From positions 33,761 to 97,760 of IMG/VR virus record IMGVR_UViG_3300043432_000083: 64,000 nt of DNA, one strand, 5' to 3'. How positions within the stretch are numbered: position 1 is the first letter of the stretch; every line of letters starts with the position of its first letter. Positions 3,298 to 52,498 of this stretch are shown in pieces. Origin of the DNA: a virus (lineage: Duplodnaviria > Caudoviricetes). Position numbers and translations under genes: made by a program. The notes under the pieces are model-generated. The model had not been told where the DNA came from. It did not search any database and worked only from the letters and a program-made list of their open reading frames with translations.

Positions 3298-3305
3298 GCT
3301 GTCCT

Positions 3306-3833: not shown

Positions 3834-3899
3834 GAGGATCGGTCCTTATGTCCGACTAAGCGGCACAATTAACCATGTTACACAATACGTTGTCGTTTA

Positions 3900-5951: not shown

Positions 5952-5954
5952 TGC

Positions 5955-8900
5955 CTAGATGTACTCCTCGTCCCAGATTACAGCCAAATCTCTGACACCA
6001 CCCATCACCAAGGTCTCCAAATCTTTCTTGTCAGCCATTCGCCCAGTGTAGACGATCTCCCGTGGCTGGCCATCTACACCGCCCACCTTCAAGACGATTT
6101 GCACCTCAAACCCGCGACGGAGGACTTGCAAGGCTTCGTTGTAGTATTGCAATCCATCTGTGGCCATCTGATGTGTCGCGCCCAGGAAATCCTTGCGATA
6201 TGCCTCAATCGCAGTCTCCAGATACTGAATAGCCGATGGTGTCAAAGCTCCTTGATTCCGCTCCGACTCGTATCGAGCCAAATGAATCCAGTCACGGATC
6301 ATCAGGAATTTGCCGAGGATACGGTCTGGATACTGGGCTCGATCACGGAACATGAGTTGGATATTCCGGTCGAAGCGACCGCGCCGCCCGGTCTCCGTGA
6401 GGTAGCCGTCATGGGCGATATGGACATCAGACAGGACGATACTCTGGCCGACGGAGTGGTTCAGGGCTAATTCTGGATGCTCATGCACAAACCCGTAGCA
6501 CCTGATTCCCGTTTCCTTCCCATTCAACCATATTCGTCGGAAGAATCGCACTGGCAAGTCCGGCTTAAAAGCATTCGCTGGCACTGCACTGAAATGATGT
6601 TGCTGAATCGCAAAACCGTTATAGATCGACCATCGAAGATATTTCGGCAAGTTCTGAGCGTCAAGAAGCTCCTCGTCTGCGTCGATCCAATGAATAAAAT
6701 CTCCGGTCGCTCGCTGCCATCCTCGGTTTCGCACAGCATCAAATCCAACTTGCAATGGATTCTGTCCCTGCCCAGGCTCAATACCAAACCGTCGCAGTAT
6801 TTCCGGCGTCGTATCAGTTGAGCCGGTATCATCAACGATGATCTCGTCACAATAGGGAGCAATCGACTTCAGGCACCGCGTCAGCAAGGATTCCCCATTC
6901 TTGACGATCATCGCTCCAGTGAGGCTGAGTTGTGGCGATTGAAGCCACTTGCGACGTTCCAAGTTGAGCGTGCTGACAGGCATCAAGGCTTTCTTTGTAT
7001 AGCAATTCAACAGCCACGCCAGGGGTCGGTTGTCGTATTTCGACAAGGCCCCACCTTCGACAATCATCGCCAACAAGTCAGACTTGCCACCCAACATTTC
7101 CTTGACATCATGGCCGTCAAAGACCCATCGGCGCTTTCGTGGCTCGCCTCGATGGAGTCTGTCTTGCTGAACCCCAGGACAGGCCGTTACGAAGCAGATA
7201 TGGCCGCCATCATTCGTCAGATATTCAGCATCCTTGATATGCTTGAGTGGATCGATTGAGCAATCAAGGCTTTCAACGCCAACCACGAAATCCGCCTTGC
7301 CATCCCGCACCGACTCTGTGCTAAGCATCTGTGCAAGATGGTCCGCGATTATATCGCCATTCGCGCCAACGCCCCTGATGGTCTTTGGTTTGTATTGTGC
7401 CGCAACATTTGCCACGGCATGATAGAGATGGTCGGTTGGCAGCCGTGGAGCATCCTGCTCCATACGCTCGACTTCATCTTTATGACGGAATGCGGTTGTT
7501 TGTTCAGGCGTCAAGTCTGGTAATATCTTTTCAACGCCGTTGACATCGCCCAATCGCCACCAGTGCCTGACCAGCCTGAGTTTGTCCTTCGACCGTAGCT
7601 CGATAGCCCCAAGCAGGAAGTGCTCCCAATCTTCCGCTGCTCCTGACCAATCGTAGTGCTCGGCCCCATTCCGGCCAGCGTCTGACATACGCTTGTTCAG
7701 TAGATCATCGCTGATGACGTCCCAGGCGGCGTCAACGAATCGATTGACGAAGTCCGGCGTGGCAGACTTGCTAGGATGCTCAACTAATCTAGCGAATCCA
7801 TCAGCAAGACTGGTCGTCTCTGGCAAGGCTCCGAGGGTGGATGCGACCACCGGAAGTCCGCAGGCAGCAGCTTCCATCGTAGTCAAGCACGAGACTTCCT
7901 CGAAATTGTTAGATGGGTATAGAAGCACCCTCGCCCTCGAATACAAGCCATACAATTCAGACTTCTTCAACGCCCCAAGCCATTTTGCTCTTGGTCCCAG
8001 GTTCGCCATAAGCTGCTGACAATGCTGGTAAAATGGGGCGAGCGATTCGACGGTATTATTGTAAGCGGCCACATATAGCGTCAGGTTCGGATTGCGCTCC
8101 AAGAGTTTCGGGAACACCTGGGACAACAACACATCCAGTCCTCGTTCAGGACGGGAGGCATAGACGATGGCATTTTTGTCCTTCTGGCCACGCTTATCTA
8201 TCGACTTCCTCACGAAATCCAAATCAATCCCGTTCCGCATTGGGGCCATGATCTCCGGTGGTAGATCGTAGACCTTGCAGAGTTGTCTCGCGTGCCAGTT
8301 CGAGACTGGGACAATATAGTCCACGTTCCATAGGCTTGACCGGAACGGCACATGGAACCGTTTCAACCCAAGGTCATGGCACCACAAGATATTCAGCTTG
8401 CTCTGCAACGCCAGATTGAACCCGGTCGGCTCCCGCTGGATGATACTGATGTCGTGTGGGGTCGAGCTTGCATAACGGACATAGTCTCCAATAGGCAAGT
8501 AGGTCACGCCATCGAATTTCCCTGGCTGTCCTGGTAGATTCGAGAACACAGTAACACTGTGGCCCCGCTTCGCCAAAGCTCTGCATAGTCCAATCGCTGC
8601 TGACTCTGAACCGCCAAGGTCCTTCGTCCGATCTGTCTGTCCATCAAATGGCATCCCGGCGACCGCCATCAAGATTGACAGCTCCTTCACCGGAGGCGTC
8701 GAGGTGCAGGATGGCACCGGGAAACGGTCAGGGAGCGGTTGGGCTTCGATGATTGGCGCGGTCGCTGTCGGTGCAGTTGCTTTATCAGTGTTGATCTTGC
8801 CACCGCACACGTCCCAGAGATAGCTCGCCATATCAGCCCATGATGTTCCTGCGCTACCTGTCGAGCCTTCAACATCGTATGGCCGTTCCTTGAGCACGCG

Positions 8901-10661
8901 GACCAATTCAGCGGGGAATCGTTCATGGCCACACTTCACGCCATGCTTGACGGTTTCACTAAGCACCATCGTCGGGACTACCACCGGATAGCATCCAGAC
9001 CATTGCGCCTCCAGCGCCGTCTTGCAGCATAGCTCTCCGCCCGTGCAAGGATAGGCCCAGACTTCAGCTTCCGCAAATTCTTTCAGTGCATCAGTATGGG
9101 CAATGCGGCCAAGGTGAACGACGCCGGGCTGCTGCAACATCTGCTCAATCCTGCCGCGCTCACGTTGCATGCTCTCCCGAACAGGAGCCGCAACGACGGC
9201 TTCAGACCGTTTCCAGAAATCCCAGCCATAGGTGACATGCAGTTCGGCATCAGGAACTTGTGCCTTCACGTTCGGCCACATCTCTAGGAGTTGTGCCAAG
9301 CCACGGTCATAGGAGGACGCATACAGCACCCGGTTCCTAACTTTTGGATGGGCAGCAACAGCTTCAGCGATCTTCTCTGTATCTACACCAAGCCAGTGTT
9401 GATAGGTCTTGGTCGGATTAACCCACGGACAGGCTTTAAGAAGTTCCTGCCGATGGTACTCACTGATACAGAGGACCGCATCGAGGCTGTCCATCAACTT
9501 CGGCGGCAAGAAGGTGGCCGCTTGTCCAGGAGCAGGAAGATCGGTGGTCCAGAAGACCTTCGTCGCTGCTGGGATATGCACCATATCCAATGATTTGAAC
9601 AGGATCAGTACGTCCCGGTCGGCCTTTGGATTCTGATCGCGGCCAAGGTAGGTCACGCCGCCGATTTCTAGGCCGTTATCCGGGCCGTTCTTATAGACTG
9701 TGACCTCATGACCCTGTATAGCCCAGGCTTCAGCGACCTTGACGACCATCTCCTCGGACCCGCCAAGGCTCTCAGGCTGAAGCGGCGTCCATCCACCAGT
9801 GACATGACCACAATGGATGCTCACGGTGGCCCGTCGGAAGCTGATCGTCCGGTTCGCGTAGGACTGGCCCTGATCCTGTTCCTCGATCAATTCGTGATCG
9901 ACCACCTTGTGCAATCCAGCCTGCTTCGCCAAGTCAATCAGGTCTTGCTCGCTGAAGACGCGCAGATGCTCTCTGGCATCCTCTAGCTTGCCGTGATGCG
10001 GGATTGGGGTTGCTGGAACGCTGATGTACAGGATGCCGCCTGGGGCGAGGTGCTTGGTTGCTGTCTTGAGACAGGTTAGAGGATCAAGGACATGCTCCAA
10101 GACTTCGGAGATGAGGACTGCGTCGAATTTCGGAAACATTGCGACAGAGCCGTCTCGCTGTGTCCATTGCTGCAACTCAAATTCTTCAATGGGACACTGG
10201 ACGAATGTGAGATCGAACCCCCACTTGTTTGCTCGTTCCTCAGCAACATCAACGGCTTTGGTACACAAATCGACCCCGACACCCTTGATCCCGCTCGCCG
10301 CCAAATTGAGCAGCTGCCACCCGTCCAAACATCCCAAGTCCAAGACCGTCTGATGCTTCCGCTCCAGGATCAGTTCACGAATCTTGGCGAACCGTTTCAC
10401 TTGTTCATGGCGTCGGAAGATTTGATCCTCTGGACAGACCCCACCTCGCATCGTCCTGTAATACTCCTGATAGGCTTCAGGAGAGTTTATGTGTGCCGTC
10501 AAGGATTCGATTTCTTGGCGAACAGGATCGCTTGTTGGCAGAATTGATACGCCAAGCCGCGCCTTTATCGCCTGATCCCGCTCGATCAGTCCTTTCGGAT
10601 CGTTCATCACTTCTTTATAATCTGTCAATTGCTCTGGGTCCGTCATTGAGTTTTCAGTCAC
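5955..10661 (-). CDS. Multidomain SAM-methyltransferase / GT4 / GT4 / degenerate MTase / GT2 protein
   Basis: VLDLGCLDG and SEVLEHV (class I MTase); two GT-B units (YASSYDRGL..ELCCKTALEA; YASRPERGL..EVSCLTTMEA); GT2 (MIVKNGE..DTGSTD..WIDADE). Start reassigned to GTG 10661 (GGAGG RBS, GTGA overlap). Confidence 0.9.
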   Translation of the reverse strand: MTENSMTDPEQLTDYKEVMNDPKGLIERDQAIKARLGVSILPTSDPVRQEIESLTAHINSPEAYQEYYRTMRGGVCPEDQIFRRHEQVKRFAKIRELILERKHQTVLDLGCLDGWQLLNLAASGIKGVGVDLCTKAVDVAEERANKWGFDLTFVQCPIEEFELQQWTQRDGSVAMFPKFDAVLISEVLEHVLDPLTCLKTATKHLAPGGILYISVPATPIPHHGKLEDAREHLRVFSEQDLIDLAKQAGLHKVVDHELIEEQDQGQSYANRTISFRRATVSIHCGHVTGGWTPLQPESLGGSEEMVVKVAEAWAIQGHEVTVYKNGPDNGLEIGGVTYLGRDQNPKADRDVLILFKSLDMVHIPAATKVFWTTDLPAPGQAATFLPPKLMDSLDAVLCISEYHRQELLKACPWVNPTKTYQHWLGVDTEKIAEAVAAHPKVRNRVLYASSYDRGLAQLLEMWPNVKAQVPDAELHVTYGWDFWKRSEAVVAAPVRESMQRERGRIEQMLQQPGVVHLGRIAHTDALKEFAEAEVWAYPCTGGELCCKTALEAQWSGCYPVVVPTMVLSETVKHGVKCGHERFPAELVRVLKERPYDVEGSTGSAGTSWADMASYLWDVCGGKINTDKATAPTATAPIIEAQPLPDRFPVPSCTSTPPVKELSILMAVAGMPFDGQTDRTKDLGGSESAAIGLCRALAKRGHSVTVFSNLPGQPGKFDGVTYLPIGDYVRYASSTPHDISIIQREPTGFNLALQSKLNILWCHDLGLKRFHVPFRSSLWNVDYIVPVSNWHARQLCKVYDLPPEIMAPMRNGIDLDFVRKSIDKRGQKDKNAIVYASRPERGLDVLLSQVFPKLLERNPNLTLYVAAYNNTVESLAPFYQHCQQLMANLGPRAKWLGALKKSELYGLYSRARVLLYPSNNFEEVSCLTTMEAAACGLPVVASTLGALPETTSLADGFARLVEHPSKSATPDFVNRFVDAAWDVISDDLLNKRMSDAGRNGAEHYDWSGAAEDWEHFLLGAIELRSKDKLRLVRHWWRLGDVNGVEKILPDLTPEQTTAFRHKDEVERMEQDAPRLPTDHLYHAVANVAAQYKPKTIRGVGANGDIIADHLAQMLSTESVRDGKADFVVGVESLDCSIDPLKHIKDAEYLTNDGGHICFVTACPGVQQDRLHRGEPRKRRWVFDGHDVKEMLGGKSDLLAMIVEGGALSKYDNRPLAWLLNCYTKKALMPVSTLNLERRKWLQSPQLSLTGAMIVKNGESLLTRCLKSIAPYCDEIIVDDTGSTDTTPEILRRFGIEPGQGQNPLQVGFDAVRNRGWQRATGDFIHWIDADEELLDAQNLPKYLRWSIYNGFAIQQHHFSAVPANAFKPDLPVRFFRRIWLNGKETGIRCYGFVHEHPELALNHSVGQSIVLSDVHIAHDGYLTETGRRGRFDRNIQLMFRDRAQYPDRILGKFLMIRDWIHLARYESERNQGALTPSAIQYLETAIEAYRKDFLGATHQMATDGLQYYNEALQVLRRGFEVQIVLKVGGVDGQPREIVYTGRMADKKDLETLVMGGVRDLAVIWDEEYI

Positions 10662-11488
10662 TTGGACACCTCCTGCATCATGCGGTGAGTGGTTTGATTC
10701 TGCGATATTACCGTATTCGCCCAATACCGTTCCTTCATCATGTTGTACACGATCTGATCTGGTCGATGATGATTCACCATCACGTCTGGTCGATGTTTCC
10801 ACTTCTCCGCGAACCGCTCCCAGTCCTGGATTTCAATGTCGGTGTCTTGGCTGGCAGTGTGATCCGCTCGGCGACTACGCTTATCAAGGTGCAAACATCT
10901 CGCGGCATCCGTTACGCCGTATTGCAGACCAGCATCACGGACTCGCTGTGCATAATCTGTGTCTCCATAACAGACATACATTCCTGAGTCGAAGTAGCCG
11001 ACCTTCTCGATGCACTCTCTGGTCATCAGGAATGCGGCTCCGTTGTAGGTTGAATAATCGACCTTCTCCGCTGGCTCAGGCTCCTCATACAGTTTCCACA
11101 GATCGTCGAATTGGTCGCTGACGACTCTAGGTCCAAGGAACGCGCAACCCGAATCGTCCTGAATCGCATCTAACAACGCCAAGGCGTCAGGGGCCAGCAG
11201 GATATCTGAGGTCAAGATGAATATCTTCTCCGATTGTCCAGCCAATACCAGCCCCCGGTTCAGCGAGGTCCAGACGCCAAGATTCTTCTCATGCCGGATG
11301 ACCCGCGCCCCACGTCGCATGGCGTCAGCGAAGACCGCATCCATCCCTGGCGCCGTTGAGCAGTTGTCCAGCAAGACGACGGACGACACCAGCTTGTCAT
11401 GATGGGCGTTCGCCCAGTAATGGGCCAGCGTCGCCGCGAGGATAGCAGGAGCGTTCCTGCACGGTATCACCACGGACACCCTACTCAT
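10658..11488 (-). CDS. Glycosyltransferase family 2
   Basis: VSVVIP, LLDNCS, NLG...SLNRG, TSDI, GAAFL..EKVGYFD..YGDTDY. Confidence 0.9.
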   Translation of the reverse strand: MSRVSVVIPCRNAPAILAATLAHYWANAHHDKLVSSVVLLDNCSTAPGMDAVFADAMRRGARVIRHEKNLGVWTSLNRGLVLAGQSEKIFILTSDILLAPDALALLDAIQDDSGCAFLGPRVVSDQFDDLWKLYEEPEPAEKVDYSTYNGAAFLMTRECIEKVGYFDSGMYVCYGDTDYAQRVRDAGLQYGVTDAARCLHLDKRSRRADHTASQDTDIEIQDWERFAEKWKHRPDVMVNHHRPDQIVYNMMKERYWANTVISQNQTTHRMMQEVSK

Positions 11489-22568: not shown

Positions 22569-23570
22569 TTACGCCACCACCGAGCTCAGCAGATAGGTCA
22601 GCTGCGTTGCGGTGATCCGCTCGTCTTGGAAGTAGTTCACCCGCTTGAGGCGGGCCTTGATGTCGTCGTCGTCCTTGGTCTCCACGAGGAAGTCCGTGAA
22701 GCCCTGCGGCCGCCACCGGAAGGCATACACGCCCGACGGCGTGTTCCTGGCGGGCCGATCTGCCGCCACAAACAGGCTGGCGTTCTTGCCCCAGATGAAG
22801 GTCATGCTCGACGCGCTGGTCGGCAGGCCCTCCGCCGCGTTCTGCTTCGGCGTTTTGCCCACAAAGTACCGACCCACCTGGAACACCGGCGCGATGACCG
22901 CCTCGATATTGCCAGCAGTGGCCACCTGCGCACCCTTGACACGGTCAATCATGTCGGGATGCAAGAGCAGCGAGTCATGCACTTCCTGTCCCACGACCAT
23001 GGTGAATTTGCTCTGGCCGGTCTCCTTCATGATCCACAGCCGACCGGTCGTGACGTCCGAGACCGGGTCGCTGTTGGCACGATCCGACCACTGCGCGGTG
23101 CCAGTCAGGGCATTGCCAGACCCGACGTTCGCGGCGGTGGTCAGCAGATTCGCCACGCGATTCTCCATGTCTAACATCAGGAGCTGCATCACGTGACGGG
23201 CCGCACTCTCTTCAAGCGCCAGAGCTTCGTCGGCGTTGTCCAAATCCTCATACGCAATGAACTCCTCCAACGCATAGTTCTTGGCATAGTAGGTCGCGCT
23301 GGAGACCGCAGTTTCGACTCGGTTCGGGCGGGTGCCGCGAGCCCGGTTGGTGTCAGGCACCTTGAACCAATAATCCTTATCCCAGGTCCGGTATATATCA
23401 GACTGCTTGGCTACTGGAACCACCGGAATGATCTGCGGAGCCAAGAACTGACTGGGCTCCACATAGAACTGAATCGACATTTCGCTCAAGGGTGAATCGA
23501 TGTGCCAGTCTGTGTCGCTGGCTGCGTATCGCCGCTCTGCGGAGAGGGCGGCCATTCGTGGATCACTCAT
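22569..23570 (-). CDS. Major capsid protein (HK97 fold, phage E-family-like)
   Basis: 333 aa; LAPQIIPVVPV, W.D..NSDPVSD, LLLHPDMIDRVK; follows protease and cement genes. Confidence 0.88.
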   Translation of the reverse strand: MSDPRMAALSAERRYAASDTDWHIDSPLSEMSIQFYVEPSQFLAPQIIPVVPVAKQSDIYRTWDKDYWFKVPDTNRARGTRPNRVETAVSSATYYAKNYALEEFIAYEDLDNADEALALEESAARHVMQLLMLDMENRVANLLTTAANVGSGNALTGTAQWSDRANSDPVSDVTTGRLWIMKETGQSKFTMVVGQEVHDSLLLHPDMIDRVKGAQVATAGNIEAVIAPVFQVGRYFVGKTPKQNAAEGLPTSASSMTFIWGKNASLFVAADRPARNTPSGVYAFRWRPQGFTDFLVETKDDDDIKARLKRVNYFQDERITATQLTYLLSSVVA

Positions 23571-24111: not shown

Positions 24112-24783
24112 CTATTTCTTGAACATCCGACCCATGCGGGCCGCTCCAGCATCCTGCTTGGCCTGTCCTTGCGGCGTGATACCCGCCGCCATGTCCTTCA
24201 GGTCCGGATTGGCGTCATAGATCGCCTTCAGCGCCACGCTGAACACCTTCTCATTCTTGTCCTTCATGTACTGTTTGGCCTGCTTGGTCGCTTCGGCCTT
24301 CGCCTCAGACGGTCGCAGCAGCTCAAGAGTCCCAGGCTGGCCCGCCGTCTCGGTCGCCTCGCCGCTGGACAGCTCCTTGAACAGGAAGGTCCCAGGCTTG
24401 CGCGACTCGAACAGCGACTTCAGGGCGTCCAGGTTGGACAGCTCCTTGCCGTTCTGCGAATAGGCTTTGACCTGCCCACCGGAGAGTGTGTCATACAAAT
24501 GCTCGACGATGGGCCGCTCAACCGGGAGGATCTTCAGATTGGACTCACTGGTCAGGGAGCTGAACCACGACTCCTTCTCGGTGACGCGGTTCCGCTCGGC
24601 CAGCTCCGCCTTTTCCTTCTCCAGCTCGACCACGCGCTGCTGGGCGGAGGTTTCCTTCTGGCTCAGCTCAGTGACCCTGGTGGAATGCTCCTGAATGGTG
24701 TCCGACAGTTCTTGATTCTTGTTCGTGAGTTCCGCGATCTGGGCCTGCAATGCCTCGACCGTCGGAGTCTGTCCGTCAGCCAT
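24112..24783 (-). CDS. Internally initiated scaffolding protein (in frame with protease)
   Basis: GAAGGAG RBS ~8 nt before in-frame ATG of MADGQTPTVEALQAQIAEL; Mu gpI/gpZ-type arrangement. Confidence 0.6.
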   Translation of the reverse strand: MADGQTPTVEALQAQIAELTNKNQELSDTIQEHSTRVTELSQKETSAQQRVVELEKEKAELAERNRVTEKESWFSSLTSESNLKILPVERPIVEHLYDTLSGGQVKAYSQNGKELSNLDALKSLFESRKPGTFLFKELSSGEATETAGQPGTLELLRPSEAKAEATKQAKQYMKDKNEKVFSVALKAIYDANPDLKDMAAGITPQGQAKQDAGAARMGRMFKK

Positions 24784-25749
24784 TGCGTGTGCTCCTTCCG
24801 TCGGGGCAGATGCGCCCACTGGGGTTGTGTCCGGGCCTAATTCGCCATCGGACTGCATGTTGTTTTTCGCTTTGCTGATCTGTATGGCTTTCTCCTGTGC
24901 TTGCGCCTCTGCTTCCGAACTATGGGTACCCAAGACCTTACCGGTAGACTCAGAGATCAGCACCCACTTGTCTCCTTGCTGCTCAATAATGTATCGCCTT
25001 TCTGCCTGTTGTCCAAATATCTGAAAGGCTTCGTCTGGTTCATAGAGATCGCAGACCTGTCCCGAGGCACATTCCCCTTCCACCAAAGAGCAGCAGGCAA
25101 TATATTGATTTGTGCCCTTGGGATCGGAAGGCCCACAAAAGAATTCACAATTGCCGCAGCAATCCATCAACCCATCATCATTTGCATCCTCGCCGCCTGC
25201 TCGATAATGAACTACGGCTTTGTCCTTCTTGTTAACAGTAACTGGAAGCGACCATTGCGCGGTGGATGGGGCAGACCCGTCCATCATGCCCATGTCATAC
25301 CGCTTGAACGGACGCTGCTCGCCATCGTACAGCGTCTCCAATGCCGCGAGGCTGGTCACAGCCGGGATGTCCGCGCCAAGCAGTGAGAGCGCCTTGACAA
25401 CCCGTGGCCATGTCTTGCCATTGCAACTGTAGTCCCAATATATCTCTGCCGACACCCTATTGTATGCGCGCCGTTTGATCGCTTGGTACACCTGCTTCGG
25501 CAGATCGGTCAGGTCGCAGTAGAGCTTGTCCCCGATGCGCCGGAGGTTCCTCACCCAGCCGATGGCAGGCATCCCGTCCGACTGGGCCAAGGGCTGTGAG
25601 GCATCGTGCCCCAGCTTCATCGGCGGATCGAATCCGACCTGTCCGAAGGCAGCGACCATATGGTCCAGATCCTGCTCGGAATAAACATCACGATTCCACG
25701 TGCCAACGCTGAAGATGGGCACCTGTTTTAGCTCAAAGGTTTCACTCAC
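24112..25749 (-). CDS. Prohead protease/scaffold (Mu gpI-like) with inserted domains
   Basis: IF.VGTW, PMKLGH, PAIGWV..L, Y.RVSAEI, LSLLGADIPAV; C-terminal coiled coil. Confidence 0.88.
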   Translation of the reverse strand: MSETFELKQVPIFSVGTWNRDVYSEQDLDHMVAAFGQVGFDPPMKLGHDASQPLAQSDGMPAIGWVRNLRRIGDKLYCDLTDLPKQVYQAIKRRAYNRVSAEIYWDYSCNGKTWPRVVKALSLLGADIPAVTSLAALETLYDGEQRPFKRYDMGMMDGSAPSTAQWSLPVTVNKKDKAVVHYRAGGEDANDDGLMDCCGNCEFFCGPSDPKGTNQYIACCSLVEGECASGQVCDLYEPDEAFQIFGQQAERRYIIEQQGDKWVLISESTGKVLGTHSSEAEAQAQEKAIQISKAKNNMQSDGELGPDTTPVGASAPTEGAHAMADGQTPTVEALQAQIAELTNKNQELSDTIQEHSTRVTELSQKETSAQQRVVELEKEKAELAERNRVTEKESWFSSLTSESNLKILPVERPIVEHLYDTLSGGQVKAYSQNGKELSNLDALKSLFESRKPGTFLFKELSSGEATETAGQPGTLELLRPSEAKAEATKQAKQYMKDKNEKVFSVALKAIYDANPDLKDMAAGITPQGQAKQDAGAARMGRMFKK

Positions 25750-26256: not shown

Positions 26257-26523
26257 TTAACATCCCTCCTTCTCGCCCAACTCGTCTGGAGTGATCTTGC
26301 CATACTCTAACACTGGTTTGTCGAATGCCTGCGTGATGTACAGCAGATCGTCCTTGAGCTCCTCTAAACTGTCTGCGCACAGCGGGATCGGCTCCTCGGT
26401 ATAGCTACAAATGCTACCATCGTCATCGTCATAATAAACTTCATGGATGCCGTAGTGCTCGATCTCATCTGGGCTGATCTCGCTCCGCAGATAGCGATGA
26501 AGAATGCGATAGTTCCACGTCAT
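26257..26523 (-). CDS. Conserved-type phage hypothetical protein
   Basis: MTWNYRI...YGIHEVYYD...AFDKPVL. Confidence 0.7.
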   Translation of the reverse strand: MTWNYRILHRYLRSEISPDEIEHYGIHEVYYDDDDGSICSYTEEPIPLCADSLEELKDDLLYITQAFDKPVLEYGKITPDELGEKEGC

Positions 26524-27398
26524 ACCGCACCATGTGCAGCGATATGGACGTTGCAAGGCGCTTGGCTGGTTCGATCCCAGCAATTCGAGCAGACTGGATA
26601 GCCCTGTACCATAGCATAATCCTCCTGAAGTTCTATGTGTCGATAACAACGCGAACAGCCCGGCATGATGACAGAGTCTTGCAATCCTTTTGGCTCTACC
26701 ACCGCCAGCAATTCCTTCGGCAAGACCATCCGCGCCACGTCCCCGAACTGCTCAATCAAGAACGCGGCTTCTCGGAGACGTTTGGCTTGGTGTCGAGAAA
26801 CATCATAATAGGCATCCTCCGCCCCGAACCGGCTCCGATCTGCCTGTTGTCCTGGCTGCACCCCGTCCTGCGCCCACGGTGCTTTCGTATGTCGGACAAT
26901 CACGGCATCTGTTTTTGCGCAGCGCCATCCCTTCGCCCGCGCTTGCAAACTGAGGTATAGATCGTCCAAGGTCTGCACCCTCACATCAGGCTCAATCCCA
27001 CTTTCCCGATCTATCACCATGCAGAACCCGCAGCAGTAGGCCAGCTCCAGCGTGGAGTCTATCAACATCGCTTCTGGAATCTTCTCGTCATGCTTAATCG
27101 CCTCTGCTGGATTCAGCAAGGCAATGTTCGGAAGGGCTGACATGCGACAGATCAGATTAACCAGCCAGCCGTCATGCAGCACCTCTGCATCATCTTCAAT
27201 AAGGCACAGATAACGGGCTTGTGACCGGCGGAACAGGCGAATGCGCTTCTCGACTTTCGTCAGTTGCTCCCCCTTTTCGATATACACATCGGCCAGCATC
27301 CCCGCTGAGATGGTTTCGAGGGACTTGAGTAGTCGAGCGAGCCAGGGATTGCTCTCGGAGTCCCGCACGCTGATCCCGATGTCCACGAGGTTCGGCAC
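26520..27398 (-). CDS. GT2-like glycosyltransferase
   Basis: CLIEDD.E....GWL, GFCMVI, DDLYLSLQARAKGW, VRH. Confidence 0.75.
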   Translation of the reverse strand: MPNLVDIGISVRDSESNPWLARLLKSLETISAGMLADVYIEKGEQLTKVEKRIRLFRRSQARYLCLIEDDAEVLHDGWLVNLICRMSALPNIALLNPAEAIKHDEKIPEAMLIDSTLELAYCCGFCMVIDRESGIEPDVRVQTLDDLYLSLQARAKGWRCAKTDAVIVRHTKAPWAQDGVQPGQQADRSRFGAEDAYYDVSRHQAKRLREAAFLIEQFGDVARMVLPKELLAVVEPKGLQDSVIMPGCSRCYRHIELQEDYAMVQGYPVCSNCWDRTSQAPCNVHIAAHGAV

Positions 27399-27559
27399 TA
27401 GTCTGATTCCTTATCTAGTGCCAGCACTGTGTCCCCTTCCTCATCGTCATCCTCATCCTCCAGTCCGATACTGGCATCCACCTCTTGGTCGAAGCTCGCT
27501 TGTGCCAACAGGTCCCGCGTCTCCTCCATCTGATCTAATTCCACCAATAACTCCATCAT
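27398..27559 (-). CDS. 53-aa highly acidic protein (not in ORF track)
   Basis: MMELLVELDQMEETRDLLAQASFDQEVDASIGLEDEDDDEEGDTVLALDKESD; 21 of 53 residues D/E; GGGAGG RBS. Confidence 0.65.
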   Translation of the reverse strand: MMELLVELDQMEETRDLLAQASFDQEVDASIGLEDEDDDEEGDTVLALDKESD

Positions 27560-27566
27560 CCCCTCC

Positions 27567-30377
27567 CTATGCCGCCTTCAACACAGTGATGCCGAACTTG
27601 TGCTCTATCGGCGCCCAGACTATCGGATTGATGTAAGCGCTCTTCGCCACCGACGGCGTGTTCCGCAGTGTGCTGGACACTTGCTTCGCGACATTGGCGA
27701 CCAGTTTCTTCGCCTCGGTCTTGGTCGTCGGTGGAGGGGCAGACTTCAAGGCTCGTTGCGCCACGCTGGTCCCGATCAGTGTGCGTAGGTCCTTCGCAGA
27801 GCATTTGCCATATCCCTTGAGATAGCCATTGACCTGTCCTGCCGAAACCGAAAAGACTTTGTCGGAACCCGACTTACCTACCAAGCGGGATCCGATGGCT
27901 GAAGCCAATGTTGGATCGGTGATCGTTCCTTGCCATGCCATCCCTTTCTTGCCGATGAAGTCGAATTTCACAATGTCTCCAGTGACTGTTAAGTGTCGAG
28001 CTTCCAAGGTTGTGGCGCCATACGCTTTGACATTGGCCTGGGTGTCGGCATCTGAGCCGACGCGCATCGCGGTCGCCAATATCAAGCCGGTGACCACCGC
28101 CTCCTCTTTGCCTTTGGCCAGGTCTTGCTCGACGCCCCGCACCAGCTTCGGATAGACCTTGCTCAGCTCCGCCACCCGCTGGAACTTCGCCGCCGCCCGC
28201 TCTCCGGTCGCCTTGGTGCTGTAGAGATACTGCTGACGACCTTTGCTGTCAATGCCAGTGGCTTGCAAAGCACTATTCGGATTATCGCTCACTTCCACAC
28301 CAGTCCATTGCGGTGGAATATGCAGTGCTTTAATCCGATCCAAGGCGTCTCTATCAGTGATAACCTGCCCGTCCCCGCCCACGAAGGCGCGTCCGCCGAC
28401 CTGATACTCATCGCTGACAGCAGCTCCGGCTCCCTCAACGGCGGTCCACTTGCCTGACTCGTCACGTGCCTGATCCGGGTTGAAGTCGTAGTCCCGCGAG
28501 GCGTGATCGCCGCAGAAGCCGCGTCCAGACAGCTCGATGCCCTTGGCTACTTCAGACGGCGTGATGTACTGCACAGGCCCCTCGTCGCGGGTGATGGGCG
28601 TCCATAGGCTTCGGCAGTTGTAATGGCGCGGTGGGCTGAGTCGATCTTCTTCTGGACTCCCTGGCCGCATGATCTTCTGATCCAGATAGTGACAGACCTC
28701 GGTGGTCCTGGCATCCAAGATCGCGCTGTACTGCATTCCGATAATGAAGCCCGACTCGACCTCCGGCGCAAACATCGCCTTCCGGCCCTCGTTGAGCGCC
28801 TCGATGGTGTTGGTCCGCACCATTGTCTCCAGCCGGTACGGGGTCAGCAGCTTCTCGTCGATGGCCTGATCCGGGTCTCCCAGCCAGGGCAGGAACACAT
28901 CGGACAGGGCCTGCTGCACGTCCCGCAGCGGGAGACCCTGCTTGATCGCGTCGTACAGCACAGCTTTGGCGTCGGACAGGATCGGGTCGCGGAGCTGGGC
29001 ACCCCACAGGGACGCTTTGGACTCGAAGAACTCCAACGCCTTCTCCGGCGGCAGGCCCTCCAGGGTATGGCGGACTTGATAGTCCTTCGCCTTCTGCCGC
29101 TTCAGCTCAGCTTGGGCATCCTTGCCACCCATGCGGAATGCCGCCCCCAGCACCTCCCGCAGCGTCGGCACCAACTGACCCAAGCCCCGCAGCTCCAGGT
29201 CATTGACCAGTTTGGTCGTCAGCTCCTTGCCGTTCAGCTTGCGGGTGATGAGGGCGATCAGCTTGTCCCGGCCCTGTGCCAAGATCGCACGGATACGCTG
29301 CTTGGACTGGGCCTCCAGCGCGTCCAGGTTGGTCCGAATAGCAACGAAGTCTACTTTGCGCTCATATTGGGTCAGGTCGCGGGGCAGGTCGGGAATGTCG
29401 GCGTAGTCGTGCTCATCACTTTCAGTATTGCTTCCTCCGCCATCCATCCACTTGCCACTGTCATCCCTAGCTTGGTTGGGGTCGAAGTCGTACTGCTTTT
29501 TTACTTTCAAGCCTTTTGCAGATACAAGAACTTCCTTATCCCCGCCTGCATTCAGATTTCCACTACTATATGCAGACAACAGAATATTTTTGATGGGGAC
29601 CTTCATTGCAACGACTATTCCTTTTTTGCCGGCATATTGTTTCGCTATTCGCAAACTTGATGTCCAAGATTCTACCGGATATCGAGTTTGCAGCACTTGC
29701 TTCACATCTTCAACCTTTCCAATTCCTCGATATAATACAATAGATTGTATTTTACCTCCTTCAGACATTCGCCATTGAGTATAAGCTATTCTCTTTATTG
29801 CATGGTCGGCTAATTTATCAAAATAGCGTTTACCCAATTGAGTCTTTCCCATAGTCCCTAGCAATGGAGAGCTGGCCCCGCGAGGCGTTCCTATATGTCC
29901 ACCAACTAATTTCTCAAATTCATGATATGTCTTATCCTGTGTTAATTCATTAAATAATTGATCCCTCCTATCCGAGGAATACCGACCAAAACTTTTATAC
30001 GCAGCTTCTATTCTATCTGAATTGATAAGGAGTAGGTGAGAATCTTGCCAGTTCTTGCCTACACCTTTCTCTTCGCTGCCTACACCACTACCACCACCCT
30101 CGGTCCACTTCCCATCCTCATCCCTGGCCTGGTCCGGATCGAAGTCGTACTGCTTGCCAGTCAACCGCTTCTTCAGCTCGGCCTTGACCTGCTCGGCGTC
30201 CCAGTCGGGATGCTCAACCACGATGGCCTGCGCCAACTTGAGGAGGTCTATTTTCGACTCGATGACGGAGACCTGCGTCGTCGGCTTGTCCTTACTGTAC
30301 ACCTTCACAGACTTGACTCGCCACCACGGCAGGCCCCCGTAGGTCTTCAGCCAGGTGCGATCGCTCGCCAGTGGCAT
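27567..30377 (-). CDS. MuF head morphogenesis protein fused to ADP-ribosyltransferase-like and DNA topoisomerase IB domains
   Basis: MuF core (RLETMVRTN, YSAILD.RTT..C..LD, PP.HYNCRS); ART R-S-E motifs (LYRG, ESWTSS, KEVLV); TopIB motifs (MRVG, FIGKKG, KDLRT, NTPSVAKSAYINP). Confidence 0.9.
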   Translation of the reverse strand: MPLASDRTWLKTYGGLPWWRVKSVKVYSKDKPTTQVSVIESKIDLLKLAQAIVVEHPDWDAEQVKAELKKRLTGKQYDFDPDQARDEDGKWTEGGGSGVGSEEKGVGKNWQDSHLLLINSDRIEAAYKSFGRYSSDRRDQLFNELTQDKTYHEFEKLVGGHIGTPRGASSPLLGTMGKTQLGKRYFDKLADHAIKRIAYTQWRMSEGGKIQSIVLYRGIGKVEDVKQVLQTRYPVESWTSSLRIAKQYAGKKGIVVAMKVPIKNILLSAYSSGNLNAGGDKEVLVSAKGLKVKKQYDFDPNQARDDSGKWMDGGGSNTESDEHDYADIPDLPRDLTQYERKVDFVAIRTNLDALEAQSKQRIRAILAQGRDKLIALITRKLNGKELTTKLVNDLELRGLGQLVPTLREVLGAAFRMGGKDAQAELKRQKAKDYQVRHTLEGLPPEKALEFFESKASLWGAQLRDPILSDAKAVLYDAIKQGLPLRDVQQALSDVFLPWLGDPDQAIDEKLLTPYRLETMVRTNTIEALNEGRKAMFAPEVESGFIIGMQYSAILDARTTEVCHYLDQKIMRPGSPEEDRLSPPRHYNCRSLWTPITRDEGPVQYITPSEVAKGIELSGRGFCGDHASRDYDFNPDQARDESGKWTAVEGAGAAVSDEYQVGGRAFVGGDGQVITDRDALDRIKALHIPPQWTGVEVSDNPNSALQATGIDSKGRQQYLYSTKATGERAAAKFQRVAELSKVYPKLVRGVEQDLAKGKEEAVVTGLILATAMRVGSDADTQANVKAYGATTLEARHLTVTGDIVKFDFIGKKGMAWQGTITDPTLASAIGSRLVGKSGSDKVFSVSAGQVNGYLKGYGKCSAKDLRTLIGTSVAQRALKSAPPPTTKTEAKKLVANVAKQVSSTLRNTPSVAKSAYINPIVWAPIEHKFGITVLKAA
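28446..28490 (-). repeat. Head-protein tag copy YDFNPDQARDESGKW (precedes TopIB)
   Basis: One of four 45-nt/15-aa copies. Confidence 0.92.
29448..29492 (-). repeat. Head-protein tag copy YDFDPNQARDDSGKW (between ART and MuF core)
   Basis: One of four 45-nt/15-aa copies. Confidence 0.92.
30105..30149 (-). repeat. Head-protein tag copy YDFDPDQARDEDGKW (precedes ART)
   Basis: One of four 45-nt/15-aa copies. Confidence 0.92.
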
Positions 30378-30619
30378 CAGGCGTTCCCCTTCTCGATCAG
30401 CAGCTTAGTGATCGGCGTCACCACGATCTGCCCGAACTGCGGAATGGTCGCCAAGGCATCATCCTTGACAGCAACAAAGTCTCCGCCTAACGCATTGCCC
30501 ATCGACACCGCAAGCGCATAGTCGACGAAGGTGCCGAGCTTCGTCCACAGCACTGCGTCTTCGGTCTGGGCCAGGAACTTGCCGACGATCCAAATCCCTT
30601 GGCTAGGCATTGATTTCAT
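30377..30619 (-). CDS. Small hypothetical protein between portal and MuF
   Basis: 80-aa ORF, stop overlaps MuF start. Confidence 0.6.
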   Translation of the reverse strand: MKSMPSQGIWIVGKFLAQTEDAVLWTKLGTFVDYALAVSMGNALGGDFVAVKDDALATIPQFGQIVVTPITKLLIEKGNA

Positions 30620-30622
30620 TTG

Positions 30623-33600
30623 TTAGGATCGTTGTGGCCATCGCTTCCATCCATACTCGTCTATTTTAGTCCCGTTTCTACCAATTGAATTAGGAACTAC
30701 TTCGCCAAAATATCTGTACTCACGCGCCCCTATCGATCCCAAAGTGGTATCGACAATTCTATCTGCTTTATCAAGATTCCATGCATGAAATGTTCGATCT
30801 GCTATAAAACTACCTGACGACTGCTTTTCCCAAATAGCACCAATTACAGTTCGAAAACCTTTCTGACGATTGGTTCGCGCGCTGTTATCTTGACATTGAC
30901 CTTGCCTACCTGGTGGGATATTTGGCGCTATCTGTGTCTGCTCTTGCCATTCTTTCGGTATTCTATAAGGACGAGATTTTGTCTCCTTTTTATCTCCACC
31001 ACCTGCACTCCCACCAGCAGTCCACTTCCCATCCTGATCTCTCGCCTGGTTGGGGTCGAAGTCGTAGGACTTCTTCATTGCCTCTACGATCACAGCGTCC
31101 AGCTCATTGTCCTGCGGTATAGCTGTTCCGTCCTCAGTCGGCGCCATAACTCCTACTTGCCCTGCTCCGGTCTGCTCTACCTTGGCTGCCTCGATGTCCT
31201 CTGCCGACTTCTCAGGGAACTCGGTGATCAATCGAATATGCGCCTCATCCTCCGGCGTGCTGGTCACGCCCCCTGCTGCAATGGCCTGGAGCCACAAGGT
31301 CAGCAAATTCGCCTTGTCCGACTCCGTGAACGGCAGGAACACGAACTTGGGATAGTCCTCCACTTGATAGTTCAAGTCCACCAAGCGTCGGATCACTTGC
31401 TCTCCCATCACCGTCTCAGCCAAATCCCGCTGGAGCTTCTCGATGATCAGGATGAAGACGTCGAAGTGCTTCTTCGCCTGCCCATAGCTGCCGGTGTCCC
31501 CCTGAGCGCTCAAGCCCAGCAGGTTCGGCAGCAACAAGGAGCGGGCGATGGCCATGTCACACAGCGCAAAGGTCCGCTCGAATACCGAGGAGCCCTGAGC
31601 GCTGATGCCACTGGTCGGGAATTGCAAGGTGATGAAGTCAGGATGAACATAGGAGGTGGCGGCCTGAAGATTCTCTAAGGAGGTCCGCACATCATCCACT
31701 GTCCCTTCTGGCACCATCCCAGAGGAGGGGACAATGCCCTCGGCAAGAGGGACGCTGTTTCCGGACCAACAGGCTTTCCCGTTCCTCCGCACATATACCA
31801 GATGATGCGGCGGGACCGTCACGCAGTAGATCATGCCAGAATAGTCCATCCAGGACCGCCTATCGTCTGGCCTATTGCAGAATGATGCCCCAATCCGAGC
31901 CTCATTTCTGCTGACGGCATACAGCGGAGAACCATCAGGACAAGTTGTATTCCGCTTCTTGACTCCAGCCCACCCACACTTCAAGATGATCTCCTGTACA
32001 TCATCCGCCAATCGCTCTGATTTCGTGCAATACCCTTGATCGCTTCCGTCACCCAGCCATAAAGCATCAAGCAGAATTCGTAATTGTCGTTGAGATATTT
32101 GCTTCAATTCAATGGGAACAAACTTGTCCCCAGCCTTCCCGAATTGCAGCAAATATTCGAAGAGCTGGCGGTCCTTGATCGTGAATGTCCGCATCCCATG
32201 CTTGTCAAGACTATCCTGCGCGTGAAGTCCGGCGGCGGAAATCCATGAGGCGATTCTATCTGCATCAGGACCGTTTTTCTGGCCGATCAACACCCTTTTG
32301 CTTCCACCGGGTGTTTCATATGCACATCCTTCTGCCAGCCAGACACCAAAGAACCGAAGCCAATCATCCATCGGCATTGTACGCTCTGGATAATCCAGCG
32401 TCCGAACTCCTTTGGTCAAGCCAAGATGATTCGAAGTCTGGTATTTCACAGTCAAGGCAGGCAAAGTAAAATATTCTTGTTCTACTCCGTGCCATATCGC
32501 ATCCCGCTTGTACGCCACACTTCGAGGCAGGTCCTTCGCCTCAATGAACCGGAACCGATAGTCCGGCCTGTCACGCAGATTCGTCTCGGTCGAGACCCAC
32601 ATCCGATGATTCGGCGTCACCAGCAGATCGATGTATCGCCCGCCCTGATGCAGCATCTTACCGCGATAGTGATCCGCGAATGTGTCTGTGACTGATCGGT
32701 ATTCCATTTCCCCGGTGTCCGGACTCAATGTAGCAACCTTGTCCCCGACCTTTGGCTCCGAAATATTTCTCCATCCCTGCTCCGTCAGGATCTCTGTGTC
32801 ATCCGAATAGCAATACCGATCAAGGAACATGCCCAGCCAGGTCCAGGCATTCGTCTTCAGCCACCAGGCGCGATACGCCGCACGAAGATCGGAGGTGCCA
32901 TATTGATTCTGATGCTCCCCCATGTAGCTCATCAGGGCAAACTTCTCGGTAGGAAGTCGCTTGCCCCATTGCTCGATGCCATCCGGCAAAAGGTTGTCAT
33001 GGCCATCCGTCACGAAGAGGAAGCCATGTGGGAGCCTGGACTTGATCGACTTCAGGCCCAGCTTCCCGTTATAGGGACCACTGTCCAGTTGACGGTACAG
33101 CAGCTCGCTAACACTGAAGCCGTATGCAAGTGAACAATTATGAAGAAACACAGAATTTGCTACAAAGTTCTGCACTTCTGGCACATGCATGTCATACACA
33201 TCAGCAAATCCCCAAGGTTCAATAGAGATCACTTCATGATTGTCCCCTTGAGTTTGTACAGCCCTTTGCTTTTCATGGTAAGCCAACATAGCCAGGCGTT
33301 GGCTTCTCCCTTTCTTACGCCGCATATCGTCTGTCCAAATGCGCTTTCGATTTGCGTCAGCAAGCTTGGCTTTTCGCTCCGGAGTCCAAGCAGCTTTGAA
33401 TCCAGATCGCATCCGATCAACTATTTTTGCATCTCCCCACAAGGCACGACTCTGACGCGAAAGACGCGCTCGCTGATTAGGTAAAGCCATAGTCTCAATC
33501 TGCTTTTCCCTCGCGCGTCGGACCCAATCAGCTCCGGCAGCCAATCCCTCTGCCTTGGCCTTGAGCATAGCCTTAACATGATTTTGTAATTCCTGCTCTG

Positions 33601-34516
33601 TCATCTTTGACAAACGATTGCGGGTGTGCTCGCTAATATGTCTACCGTGCCCTTTGATCTCCAAGTTTTCAGGAGCATCATCCGCTTTTTCCTCATTCCG
33701 ATGGTGTACAGCAGAACCTTCCGGAACTGGCCCACACACCTCTGTATAGACCCAGTTAGCCCTCTTACACTGTCTCTCGTGTGGAGGCTTGATCCGAACA
33801 TACCCATCTTTGCTTCTCTGCTGATCAAATGGCATCAGCCGATCTCCCGATCTCAACAGACCAGCTCGTTTGTAACTACCATTACGAAGCAAAAAGGGGT
33901 GATTATCAGTGCAAATAATAGAATCCTCTTTCCATACAAATCCCCATTTCCGATTACCAGTCCGCCACCGATATGTCACACGTATGCATGGCGCATTCTG
34001 CTTACTCAACCACACTTTGCTAGCTCTCGCAAGCGTCATGCGTCCATTAACATAACTATAAACCAGAGGAGTTGTCCCTACAAGCTCTCTGATCGGCCTA
34101 TCTCCGTCCGGAGAGTGAATAATAGTATCTCCATGCAGACATAGCATCTCTTGCAGGTTCTGGTCCAGGCACCCGTCCATCTTGGTGAAGTTCCACTTGA
34201 CAAACTCCGCCACCTCCACACTGTCCGACTTGTCATCCACTGGCTCGATGTCCCATCCGGTGGACAGGATGGCATGCTTCTTCATGGCGAGGGCGGCCTT
34301 GACGGCATCATCGGTCTGCATCTTCTGGTAGATGGACAGGCCCTTGCGGCCCACGAGGTCATCGGAATTGACTTGTCGCTCTAGGTTGGAGGGGAAGAAG
34401 ATAGCACGGCGGTTGACGCTGACTTCGGTGAGGAGCTGCTGAAGAGAGGCTCCTCCCGACTGAGGAGTCGAGGTCCGCGTCCTCCGAGGGGGAGCCTGCT
34501 GAGCCGCTACAGACAC
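30623..34516 (-). CDS. Portal protein (Mu gp29/DUF935-like) with two inteins and a C-terminal extra domain
   Basis: YQKM.TD..V, YGFSVSE, YGTSDLRAAY..W, GSYGQA..H, IRRLVDLNY...YPKF; about 610 aa after splicing. Confidence 0.9.
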   Translation of the reverse strand: MSVAAQQAPPRRTRTSTPQSGGASLQQLLTEVSVNRRAIFFPSNLERQVNSDDLVGRKGLSIYQKMQTDDAVKAALAMKKHAILSTGWDIEPVDDKSDSVEVAEFVKWNFTKMDGCLDQNLQEMLCLHGDTIIHSPDGDRPIRELVGTTPLVYSYVNGRMTLARASKVWLSKQNAPCIRVTYRWRTGNRKWGFVWKEDSIICTDNHPFLLRNGSYKRAGLLRSGDRLMPFDQQRSKDGYVRIKPPHERQCKRANWVYTEVCGPVPEGSAVHHRNEEKADDAPENLEIKGHGRHISEHTRNRLSKMTEQELQNHVKAMLKAKAEGLAAGADWVRRAREKQIETMALPNQRARLSRQSRALWGDAKIVDRMRSGFKAAWTPERKAKLADANRKRIWTDDMRRKKGRSQRLAMLAYHEKQRAVQTQGDNHEVISIEPWGFADVYDMHVPEVQNFVANSVFLHNCSLAYGFSVSELLYRQLDSGPYNGKLGLKSIKSRLPHGFLFVTDGHDNLLPDGIEQWGKRLPTEKFALMSYMGEHQNQYGTSDLRAAYRAWWLKTNAWTWLGMFLDRYCYSDDTEILTEQGWRNISEPKVGDKVATLSPDTGEMEYRSVTDTFADHYRGKMLHQGGRYIDLLVTPNHRMWVSTETNLRDRPDYRFRFIEAKDLPRSVAYKRDAIWHGVEQEYFTLPALTVKYQTSNHLGLTKGVRTLDYPERTMPMDDWLRFFGVWLAEGCAYETPGGSKRVLIGQKNGPDADRIASWISAAGLHAQDSLDKHGMRTFTIKDRQLFEYLLQFGKAGDKFVPIELKQISQRQLRILLDALWLGDGSDQGYCTKSERLADDVQEIILKCGWAGVKKRNTTCPDGSPLYAVSRNEARIGASFCNRPDDRRSWMDYSGMIYCVTVPPHHLVYVRRNGKACWSGNSVPLAEGIVPSSGMVPEGTVDDVRTSLENLQAATSYVHPDFITLQFPTSGISAQGSSVFERTFALCDMAIARSLLLPNLLGLSAQGDTGSYGQAKKHFDVFILIIEKLQRDLAETVMGEQVIRRLVDLNYQVEDYPKFVFLPFTESDKANLLTLWLQAIAAGGVTSTPEDEAHIRLITEFPEKSAEDIEAAKVEQTGAGQVGVMAPTEDGTAIPQDNELDAVIVEAMKKSYDFDPNQARDQDGKWTAGGSAGGGDKKETKSRPYRIPKEWQEQTQIAPNIPPGRQGQCQDNSARTNRQKGFRTVIGAIWEKQSSGSFIADRTFHAWNLDKADRIVDTTLGSIGAREYRYFGEVVPNSIGRNGTKIDEYGWKRWPQRS
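31022..31066 (-). repeat. Head-protein tag copy YDFDPNQARDQDGKW (precedes portal C-terminal domain)
   Basis: One of four 45-nt/15-aa copies. Confidence 0.92.
31757..32812 (-). mobile_element. Intein 2 in portal (352 aa, LAGLIDADG-type endonuclease)
   Basis: Begins CYSDDTEILTEQGW, block B VTPNH, FFGVWLAEG and LDALWLGDG, ends ACWSGN|S. Confidence 0.92.
33137..34141 (-). mobile_element. Intein 1 in portal (335 aa, HNH-type endonuclease)
   Basis: Begins CLHGDT, block B CTDNHPF, VHHRNE.K.D..PENL, VYDMHV..VQNFVAN, ends FLHN|C. Confidence 0.92.
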
Positions 34517-50821: not shown

Positions 50822-51015
50822 TGTTCCTCCTCGATATACTGGCTCAGGTCCTCTACCAGACTAGGATCGCCACATCGCTTCAGATAGTCCTTTCCTCCGT
50901 CCACCGCAATCCCTCCGCAGGAGCACCACTTGAAATCACGCCGATACTCAGACACCAACACATCCCCGCAGCGGCGGCATCGCGCTGAATTGGTTTGTAT
51001 TCGCTGCGCGCTCAT
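50818..51015 (-). CDS. Small conserved-type Zn-binding phage protein
   Basis: CRRCGD...S....DF..CSCG...VDGG..Y. Confidence 0.7.
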   Translation of the reverse strand: MSAQRIQTNSARCRRCGDVLVSEYRRDFKWCSCGGIAVDGGKDYLKRCGDPSLVEDLSQYIEEEQ

Positions 51016-52382: not shown

Positions 52383-52498
52383 AGAGCTTTGATCGGAATT
52401 GTTTTAATCCATATGTAACAAGGAGCCAGATAATGAAGTGCAAATAATAAGATCAGTATTATTCCAATCAATAAAAATTCACAGATAAAATCACGCAA
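52376..52498 (-). CDS. 40-aa hydrophobic micro-protein between polymerase halves
   Basis: TTG-start MRDFICEFLLIGIILILLFALHYLAPCYIWIKTIPIKALC; AT-rich; overlaps both neighbours. Confidence 0.4.
   Translation of the reverse strand: MRDFICEFLLIGIILILLFALHYLAPCYIWIKTIPIKALC

Follow-up and report, generated by a model that had tools for sequence, protein, structure and literature searches.

A bacterial-type topoisomerase IB fused in frame to a MuF-type minor head protein in an uncultured tailed phage

We analysed a 64,000-nt stretch (hereafter the window) of the 97,760-bp IMG/VR viral record IMGVR_UViG_3300043432_000083 and found on its minus strand, at 27567–30377, a single uninterrupted open reading frame (ORF) of 936 amino acids, P0001, in which a phage minor head protein of the MuF type carries a topoisomerase IB (TopIB) at its C-terminus. 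From N- to C-terminus the ORF comprises a leader, a short peptide tag, a probable ADP-ribosyltransferase (ART)-like module, a second tag, MuF, a third tag and TopIB. Five things can be read from sequence: the identity of the TopIB, its intact active-site pentad, its in-frame fusion to MuF, its position after the portal gene in a complete and apparently non-temperate phage, and the recurrence of the arrangement. We give a probability of about 0.6 to the reading that P0001 is a capsid-internal, MuF-anchored, multi-enzyme cargo protein ending in a catalytically competent bacterial-type TopIB; its packaging, cleavage and activity we infer. An original prediction, made from the DNA letters and their translations, had described 27567–28445 as an apparently intact TopIB fused to MuF and proposed a virion-packaged enzyme that relaxes DNA during packaging or right after ejection; this reading is partly supported by the present analysis.

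The C-terminal 282 residues (655–936; 27570–28415, minus strand) are, by sequence and by predicted structure, a complete two-domain bacterial-type TopIB. Pfam assigned the N-terminal clamp domain (residues 665–710; 28248–28385) to Top1B_N_bact, PF21338 (E = 2.7e-14), and the catalytic domain (residues 722–913; 27639–28214) to Topoisom_I, PF01028 (E = 9.6e-25). When the protein was compared with PDB sequences by phmmer, the top match was the TopIB of Deinococcus radiodurans (2f4q/3m4a; E = 1.2e-29 over residues 665–921), followed by 6z01 ('DNA topoisomerase I') and the variola and vaccinia TopIBs. The phmmer alignment pairs D. radiodurans R137, K174, R239, N280 and Y289 with R772 (codon at 28062–28064), K810 (27948–27950), R865 (27783–27785), N906 (27660–27662) and Y915 (27633–27635). 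Across an alignment of 27 fused homologues (the query and 26 others) both arginines, the lysine and the tyrosine were invariant and the asparagine was kept in at least 90%, and the same pattern was seen in 50 fused ORFs from IMG/VR. The original prediction had labelled this Arg-Lys-Arg-Asn-Tyr pentad as bacterial or poxvirus type; the bacterial attribution stands, whereas the poxviral one does not, since poxvirus enzymes have His as the fourth residue.

All six motifs quoted in the original prediction are encoded by the minus strand, near the C-terminal end of this one ORF, with IPPQW starting at residue 687, LQATGIDSKGRQQYLYS at 704, MRVG at 771, FIGKKG at 807, KDLRT at 862, NTPSV at 906 and SAYINP at 913. 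The plus strand of 27567–28445 contains none of them, only stops. That span corresponds to the stop codon plus residues 645–936, that is, everything beyond the third tag. Judged by the Topoisom_I and Top1B_N_bact matches in Pfam and by the phmmer match to 2f4q, the agreement of the motifs is far above chance.

Structure prediction, proposed at the outset as a check, also returned a TopIB fold. An AlphaFold2 (AF2) model based on the fused-homologue alignment had a mean predicted local distance difference test score (pLDDT) of 93.7 and a predicted template modelling score (pTM) of 0.86, and its top Foldseek matches in PDB were all TopIBs, including that of D. radiodurans (E = 1.7e-15). Variola TopIB–DNA complexes matched with template modelling (TM) scores of 0.77–0.79 and root-mean-square deviations (rmsd) of 3.1–3.5 Å, and poxvirus TopIB (2h7f, 3igc, 2h7g) gave the best structural superposition (TM 0.77–0.79, rmsd ~3.2 Å). 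Tyrosine recombinases and protelomerases were rejected as alternative identities, as their matches (TM ~0.3, E = 2e-3 or worse) fell far under those of the TopIBs. Thus the claim of an intact TopIB is borne out by sequence, pentad and predicted fold, and the domain is apparently catalytically competent, with relaxation activity predicted from its sequence.

The domain resembles the D. radiodurans enzyme in its two-domain clamp (PF21338 plus PF01028), in its R-K-R-N-Y pentad and in ~30% identity over 257 residues. The D. radiodurans protein is free-standing, ~346 amino acids long and chromosomal, whereas here TopIB is the C-terminal module of a 936-residue phage head protein, placed behind a tag. 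Poxvirus TopIBs are ~23% identical to it, are not fused to a structural protein and belong to eukaryotic viruses.

MuF, the presumptive anchor of the protein, occupies residues ~320–632 (28482–29420). Its Pfam core (residues 472–590; 28608–28964) matched Phage_Mu_F, PF04233, with 42.7 bits against a cut-off of 29.6 (E = 1.1e-10); the SPP1 gp7 domain of NCBIfam, TIGR01641, scored 37.5 bits on this part, slightly below its cut-off of 39.65, PHROG head-morphogenesis families matched it with E = 6e-14, and PHROG minor-head families matched as well. The region carries the motifs VCHYLD and HYNCRS. SPP1 gp7 and Mu gpF, which are portal-bound minor head proteins, share PF04233 and TIGR01641 and likewise have a gene adjoining the portal gene, but lack a topoisomerase domain. 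The original claim of a fusion was correct: TopIB and MuF are joined in frame, in a head module and right after the portal, and the fusion is kept in the relatives P0002, P0063, P0064 and P0067.

These four MuF–TopIB fusions are the closest relatives of the window's protein (67, 55, 56 and 46% identity, respectively), and inteins lie inside MuF in two of the closest relatives. In P0002, encoded at 2965–6825 on the plus strand of the nearest related locus, L001, an intein with a DUF559-type endonuclease cuts MuF exactly inside HYNCRS, between HYNC and RS. In a word-indexed search restricted to proteins of 514–1638 amino acids, the TopIB part had 58 relatives, for which the precomputed Pfam annotations included portals (PF06381 in 16, PF06074 in six, PF05136 in three), MuF, ART, NUDIX and 2H. 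When 1.84 billion cluster representatives were searched exhaustively with HMMER, 7019 matched at E ≤ 1e-3. Among the best 150 of these, TopIB was C-terminal behind at least 120 amino acids in 89, N-terminal in 12, internal in 11 and of stand-alone size in 38. With one peptide pattern, relatives were found on at least 161 IMG/VR viral contigs, and 50 distinct fused ORFs were recovered from 80 of these loci. A portal domain was present in 24 of the 50, MuF in six, InPase in five, NUDIX in three and 2H phosphoesterase in two. ART-PolyVal, Mu-like_Pro, DUF3626 and Rubrerythrin or EncFtn-like domains were each seen in single fused IMG/VR ORFs; among encapsulin cargoes, EncFtn is a classic one. InPase, NUDIX, 2H and ART-PolyVal are domains typical of polyvalent proteins. 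Where TopIB is a gene of its own, it is at some loci immediately preceded by a gene whose product is homologous to the N-extension of the fused forms, as at locus L025, where the neighbour is 48–52% identical to such N-extensions.

A quick maximum-likelihood tree, drawn from a comparison set without named bacterial TopIBs, placed the query with P0002 and P0061–P0064 in a supported clade. The carrier label requires at least 19 changes on this tree, against a minimum possible of six, which argues that the TopIB cassette has moved between carriers. A tblastn search with the whole protein against 50,697 deposited records of cultured phages found no TopIB fusion, only MuF-only or TopIB-only matches. 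The sole TopIB matches there were in the jumbo phages Lu11 (Pseudomonas) and BCSR5 (Burkholderia), where the homologues are ~27% identical and encoded as separate genes, unfused to head proteins. A megablast of 18 kb against deposited phages gave no match, and P0064 had no close relative in IMG/VR.

The modules of P0001 are separated by a 15-residue tag, YDF[DN]P[DN]QARD[ED]xGKW, of which the ORF has three copies. Tag 1 (YDFDPDQARDEDGKW; residues 77–91, 30105–30149) lies between the leader and module 2, tag 2 (YDFDPNQARDDSGKW; residues 296–310, 29448–29492) between module 2 and MuF, and tag 3 (YDFNPDQARDESGKW; residues 630–644, 28446–28490) directly upstream of TopIB, so that the protein is split into a 75-residue leader, a 200-residue module, MuF and TopIB. 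A fourth copy (SYDFDPNQARDQDGKW; 31022–31066, minus strand) is found near the C-terminus of the portal, and the tag was seen nowhere else in the six frames of the window. The relatives P0064 and P0068 have three tags each, as P0001 does. The four copies are identical at 36–45 of 57 nt and use all four Ala codons. Because synonymous sites have diverged, the peptide is under selection and the repeats are not recent DNA copies; for the same reason, we regard as unlikely the idea that they are DNA recombination sites kept by gene conversion.

Most fusions have a related motif ahead of TopIB, approximately [FYW]-[DN]-[PE]-x-[QH]-[PA]-R-x(2-9)-G-x-[FW], after which comes a region rich in Gly and Ser, and a related tag is visible even when the 50 IMG/VR ORFs are reduced to a majority consensus. 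Of 49 fused ORFs, 30 had the strict tag pattern in the 90 amino acids ahead of TopIB, compared with 12 of 222 control windows taken from elsewhere in the same fused proteins. It was also found near the N-terminus of nine of 20 stand-alone TopIB genes. As the tag travels with the cargo, even with cargo encoded by a separate gene, a targeting or processing signal fits better than a mere linker.

The N-terminal leader of the protein (residues 1–75; 30153–30377) shares its first ~20 residues (MPLA..WLKTYG.LPWWR) with L001. Module 2 (residues 97–296; 29490–30089) is probably ADP-ribosyltransferase-like, a call made from motifs and structure neighbours. It has YRG at 216–218, WTSS at 238–241 and KEVLV at 281–285, in the R-S-E order of ADP-ribosyltransferases, and the ESM Atlas structure neighbours of the protein model belong to DRAT and MuF+ART clusters (TM 0.60–0.67). 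In a weak BLASTP alignment with P0016 (E = 1.1), all three motifs line up with its PF03496 domain. The module had no match in Pfam or, by phmmer, in PDB sequences; a search for homologues of near its length returned only the protein itself, and its single-sequence AF2 model was unusable (pLDDT 39). The GC content of module 2 is 0.40 and that of the tagged C-terminal domain of the portal 44%, compared with 62.5% for MuF, 57% for TopIB and 55% for the genome. By their low GC, module 2 and the portal domain look like recent insertions, whereas TopIB looks resident; TopIB is common to the window and its nearest relative L001, and module 2 is not. The second module of L001 is unrelated to the ART-like module of the window, and no tag lies between it and MuF.

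Directly downstream of TopIB is a very acidic ORF of 53 amino acids, 21 of them D or E (27398–27559, minus strand), which starts 7 nt past the TopIB stop, behind GGGAGGGG, and whose own stop overlaps the next start. L001 has a syntenic 53-residue homologue. We defined an acidic ORF as one located −25 to +80 nt from TopIB, of 40–100 amino acids, with at least 24% D/E and at most 12% K/R; one lay directly downstream at 35 of 76 assessable TopIB loci in IMG/VR, with fused and free TopIB alike. Twenty-seven of the 35 form a clear family with the consensus LPD.HFG...DWR...DPD.DEEL..TP.DV...LGFDP (alignment A3), which had no Pfam match. The reverse search, in which a degenerate DNA pattern for TPxDVxxxLGFDP was run against all of IMG/VR, returned 80 matches: 41 in small acidic ORFs directly after TopIB, ~29 at the N-terminus of a longer ORF starting right after TopIB, and five at locus edges. 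At L096 and L106 the match had upstream DNA present and no TopIB. Overall, ~70 of ~75 assessable LGFDP-motif matches directly follow TopIB. At the ~29 loci with longer ORFs, which are among L081–L159 (for example L087, L088, L098 and L129), the motif heads an ORF of 270–690 amino acids; our guess is that these encode a protease or scaffold. By analogy, the 53-residue ORF of the window is a candidate partner or inhibitor of TopIB.

The same layout raises the question of a toxin with its immunity protein. Jamet et al. (2017; PMC5576092) described MuF polymorphic toxins in which, as here, MuF is followed by a variable C-terminal enzyme domain and a small gene lies directly downstream. TopIB might accordingly be an injected effector that nicks or relaxes host DNA or traps cleavage complexes, with the acidic protein conferring immunity in the producing cell. 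The tight linkage of the acidic partner to TopIB across carriers and the ART-like effector module in the same protein both suit this explanation. However, the full pentad, including the religation residues, is kept in fused homologues and predicts a complete topoisomerase cycle rather than a nicking poison. The described MuF toxins come from temperate phages, whereas no tyrosine integrase (PF00589) was found in this complete genome (serine integrases were not searched), and here an extra module lies N-terminal of MuF. Topoisomerase is not mentioned in PMC5576092, and TopIB is absent from its toxin domains. Moreover, no second topoisomerase was detected in the phage, as would suit an enzyme working on the phage's own DNA; the complete genome has this one TopIB and no type IA or type IIA enzyme. 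We therefore rate the toxin explanation as rather unlikely. The original prediction had called TopIB a DNA-handling cargo rather than a toxin, a contrast drawn too sharply, with an ART-like module in the same polypeptide and an acidic gene at the position of MuF immunity genes; because of these two features, it retains some probability that TopIB acts as an effector or in a toxin-like way and is neutralised by a partner.

The favoured reading, a packaged cargo acting on DNA, must also be set against a use of TopIB inside the head at the portal vertex, where the enzyme would relieve twist during packaging or covalently hold or protect the genome end. TopIBs form a covalent 3'-phosphotyrosyl intermediate that can be trapped near DNA ends, an established feature of their enzymology that such an anchor could exploit. 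Portals are the commonest carriers (24 of 50), with the enzyme at their C-terminal end, and MuF proteins sit at the portal. No direct evidence speaks for such a swivel or anchor, and most tailed phages package DNA without an enzyme of this kind. A conserved acidic partner that blocks DNA binding would be hard to reconcile with it, unless the partner leaves with the scaffold. We give this alternative little credence.

The genome around the fusion is complete, as judged by direct terminal repeats and a CheckV estimate of 100% for the 97,760 bp. Its first and last 127 bases are identical (genome positions 1–127 and 97634–97760), which fits a circular assembly or a terminal repeat. Only two sequencing runs hold the stretch and both are from the source freshwater-metagenome sample, so the runs give no independent support. 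The P0001 gene is preceded by the portal gene and an 80-residue ORF (30377–30619) and followed by the acidic ORF, a 292-residue ORF (26520–27398), a 545-residue prohead protease/scaffold fusion (24112–25749; PHROG 976 and 3894) and the major head protein (22569–23570; PHROG 1005, E = 2e-60), all on the minus strand. Neither the 80-residue nor the 292-residue ORF had a family match; L001 has a 265-residue ORF at the position matching the latter.

The phage also encodes a DNA polymerase, a DnaB-like helicase and an SbcC-like nuclease. With these and no other topoisomerase, TopIB could instead work unpackaged: MuF would serve in assembly only and be lost or cleaved, and the enzyme would act late in the cytoplasm, for example on replication intermediates or concatemers. 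The gene, however, sits in the head module and not in a replication module, and repeated independent fusion of TopIB to portals and MuF (the tree needs 19 or more switches of carrier) would be unexpected for a cytoplasmic replication enzyme. We consider this alternative very improbable.

Under the packaged-cargo reading, the MuF part would bind the portal during procapsid assembly in the manner of SPP1 gp7, so that the attached TopIB and ART-like module would end up inside the head. The tags would mark module boundaries and serve as a processing or targeting signal, possibly being cut by the prohead protease. The small acidic protein may be a DNA-mimic-like inhibitor or chaperone that holds the TopIB clamp inactive until DNA arrives. 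TopIB would then leave with the genome and relax or re-join DNA early in infection, on either the incoming genome or host DNA. The closest functional analogy is poxvirus TopIB, which is carried in the virion core and probably supports early transcription. Loading through MuF is proposed because of what is described for SPP1 gp7, Mu gpF and the polyvalent proteins (PMC5512222).

Several points weigh against this reading. Virion presence, cleavage and relaxation are all argued by analogy, and the time and substrate of TopIB action are a proposal. The role of the tag is deduced from its position, and the evidence that module 2 is ART-like is weak, Pfam, PDB and AF2 having given nothing usable. 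The acidic ORF of the window scored 4 bits against a hidden Markov model of the LGFDP family, which is not significant, and is likened to that family by position, size and charge only. The tree came from a short search, and many of its carrier labels are missing.

Phage-type polyvalent proteins, which combine several enzymatic modules and MuF in one polypeptide encoded among head genes (Iyer et al. 2017, PMC5512222), are a further known system with which P0001 can be compared. The likeness lies in an ART-like module, MuF and TopIB sharing one ORF beside the portal, and ART, InPase, NUDIX and 2H co-occur with TopIB in relatives. Polyvalent proteins often, though not obligatorily, carry an MPTase processing peptidase; none was detected here, and no peptidase family was found in P0001 with Pfam, PHROGs or NCBIfam. 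TopIB is not among the domains described in PMC5512222, where 'topoisomerase' appears solely in a reference title, and that paper describes no linkers or tags and no acidic partner. A full-text literature search combining MuF or portal with topoisomerase IB and phage returned nothing relevant. The domain families and the fusion of effectors to MuF were already known, while the TopIB cargo, the tag and the acidic partner are undescribed in the literature searched. Specific to this window are a MuF carrier with three tags and a fourth on the portal, the placing of a low-GC ART-like module on the N-terminal side of MuF, and an acidic partner of divergent sequence.

The tagged portal (30623–34516, minus strand) is Mu-like and 1297 amino acids long, with two intein-type insertions: the first comprises an Intein_splicing domain at residues 196–460 with an HNH endonuclease (HNH_3, 255–286), and the second is a Hint domain from ~residue 569. 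Beyond the fourth tag is a C-terminal domain of ~130 amino acids (30623–31021; 44% GC) that received no assignment from Pfam, PHROGs, NCBIfam or Atlas. It contains a Cys (QCQDN), a His (FHAWN) and an Asp (DRIVDTT), and may represent another cargo behind a tag, perhaps an enzyme resembling papain or a transglutaminase. Elsewhere, two neighbouring minus-strand ORFs (51012–52382 and 52491–53714) together make up the split DNA polymerase and match consecutive positions of the PHROG 17 profile (479–825 and 832–1235), and a 1615-residue protein at 5955–10802 (minus strand) has a methyltransferase-like region and two glycosyltransferase-like regions.

We also entertain, as a possible and more speculative extension, that the tag, TopIB and the acidic partner together make up a cassette for capsid cargo that is mobile and self-contained. 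As a targeting or processing peptide, the tag would allow the enzyme to be loaded with any head-internal carrier, whether portal, MuF or none; the acidic protein, as a DNA-mimic plug, would shut the clamp until packaging or ejection; and the enzyme would act on the entering phage genome. Small TopIBs are familiar from poxviruses, whose virions carry them, and from a patchily distributed minority of bacteria. If the cassette proposal is true, most small TopIBs would reside in uncultured phages, from which the sporadic TopIB genes of bacteria, and perhaps those of poxviruses and mimiviruses, could plausibly have come.

The wider picture is of a large and diverse pool of TopIBs that uncultured phages carry on proteins inside the head, preceded by a shared tag and followed by a dedicated acidic partner. 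If these enzymes are packaged and ejected, phages and poxviruses would share a solution in which a swivel is brought along with the genome, and it would become testable why an incoming genome needs one, be it for relaxation in early transcription, circularisation or end protection. The effectors known to be delivered by phages would then include a DNA-topology enzyme. In the acidic protein there is a candidate for a natural, proteinaceous inhibitor of TopIB, and the tag, a short peptide, may be a general signal for capsid loading or processing.

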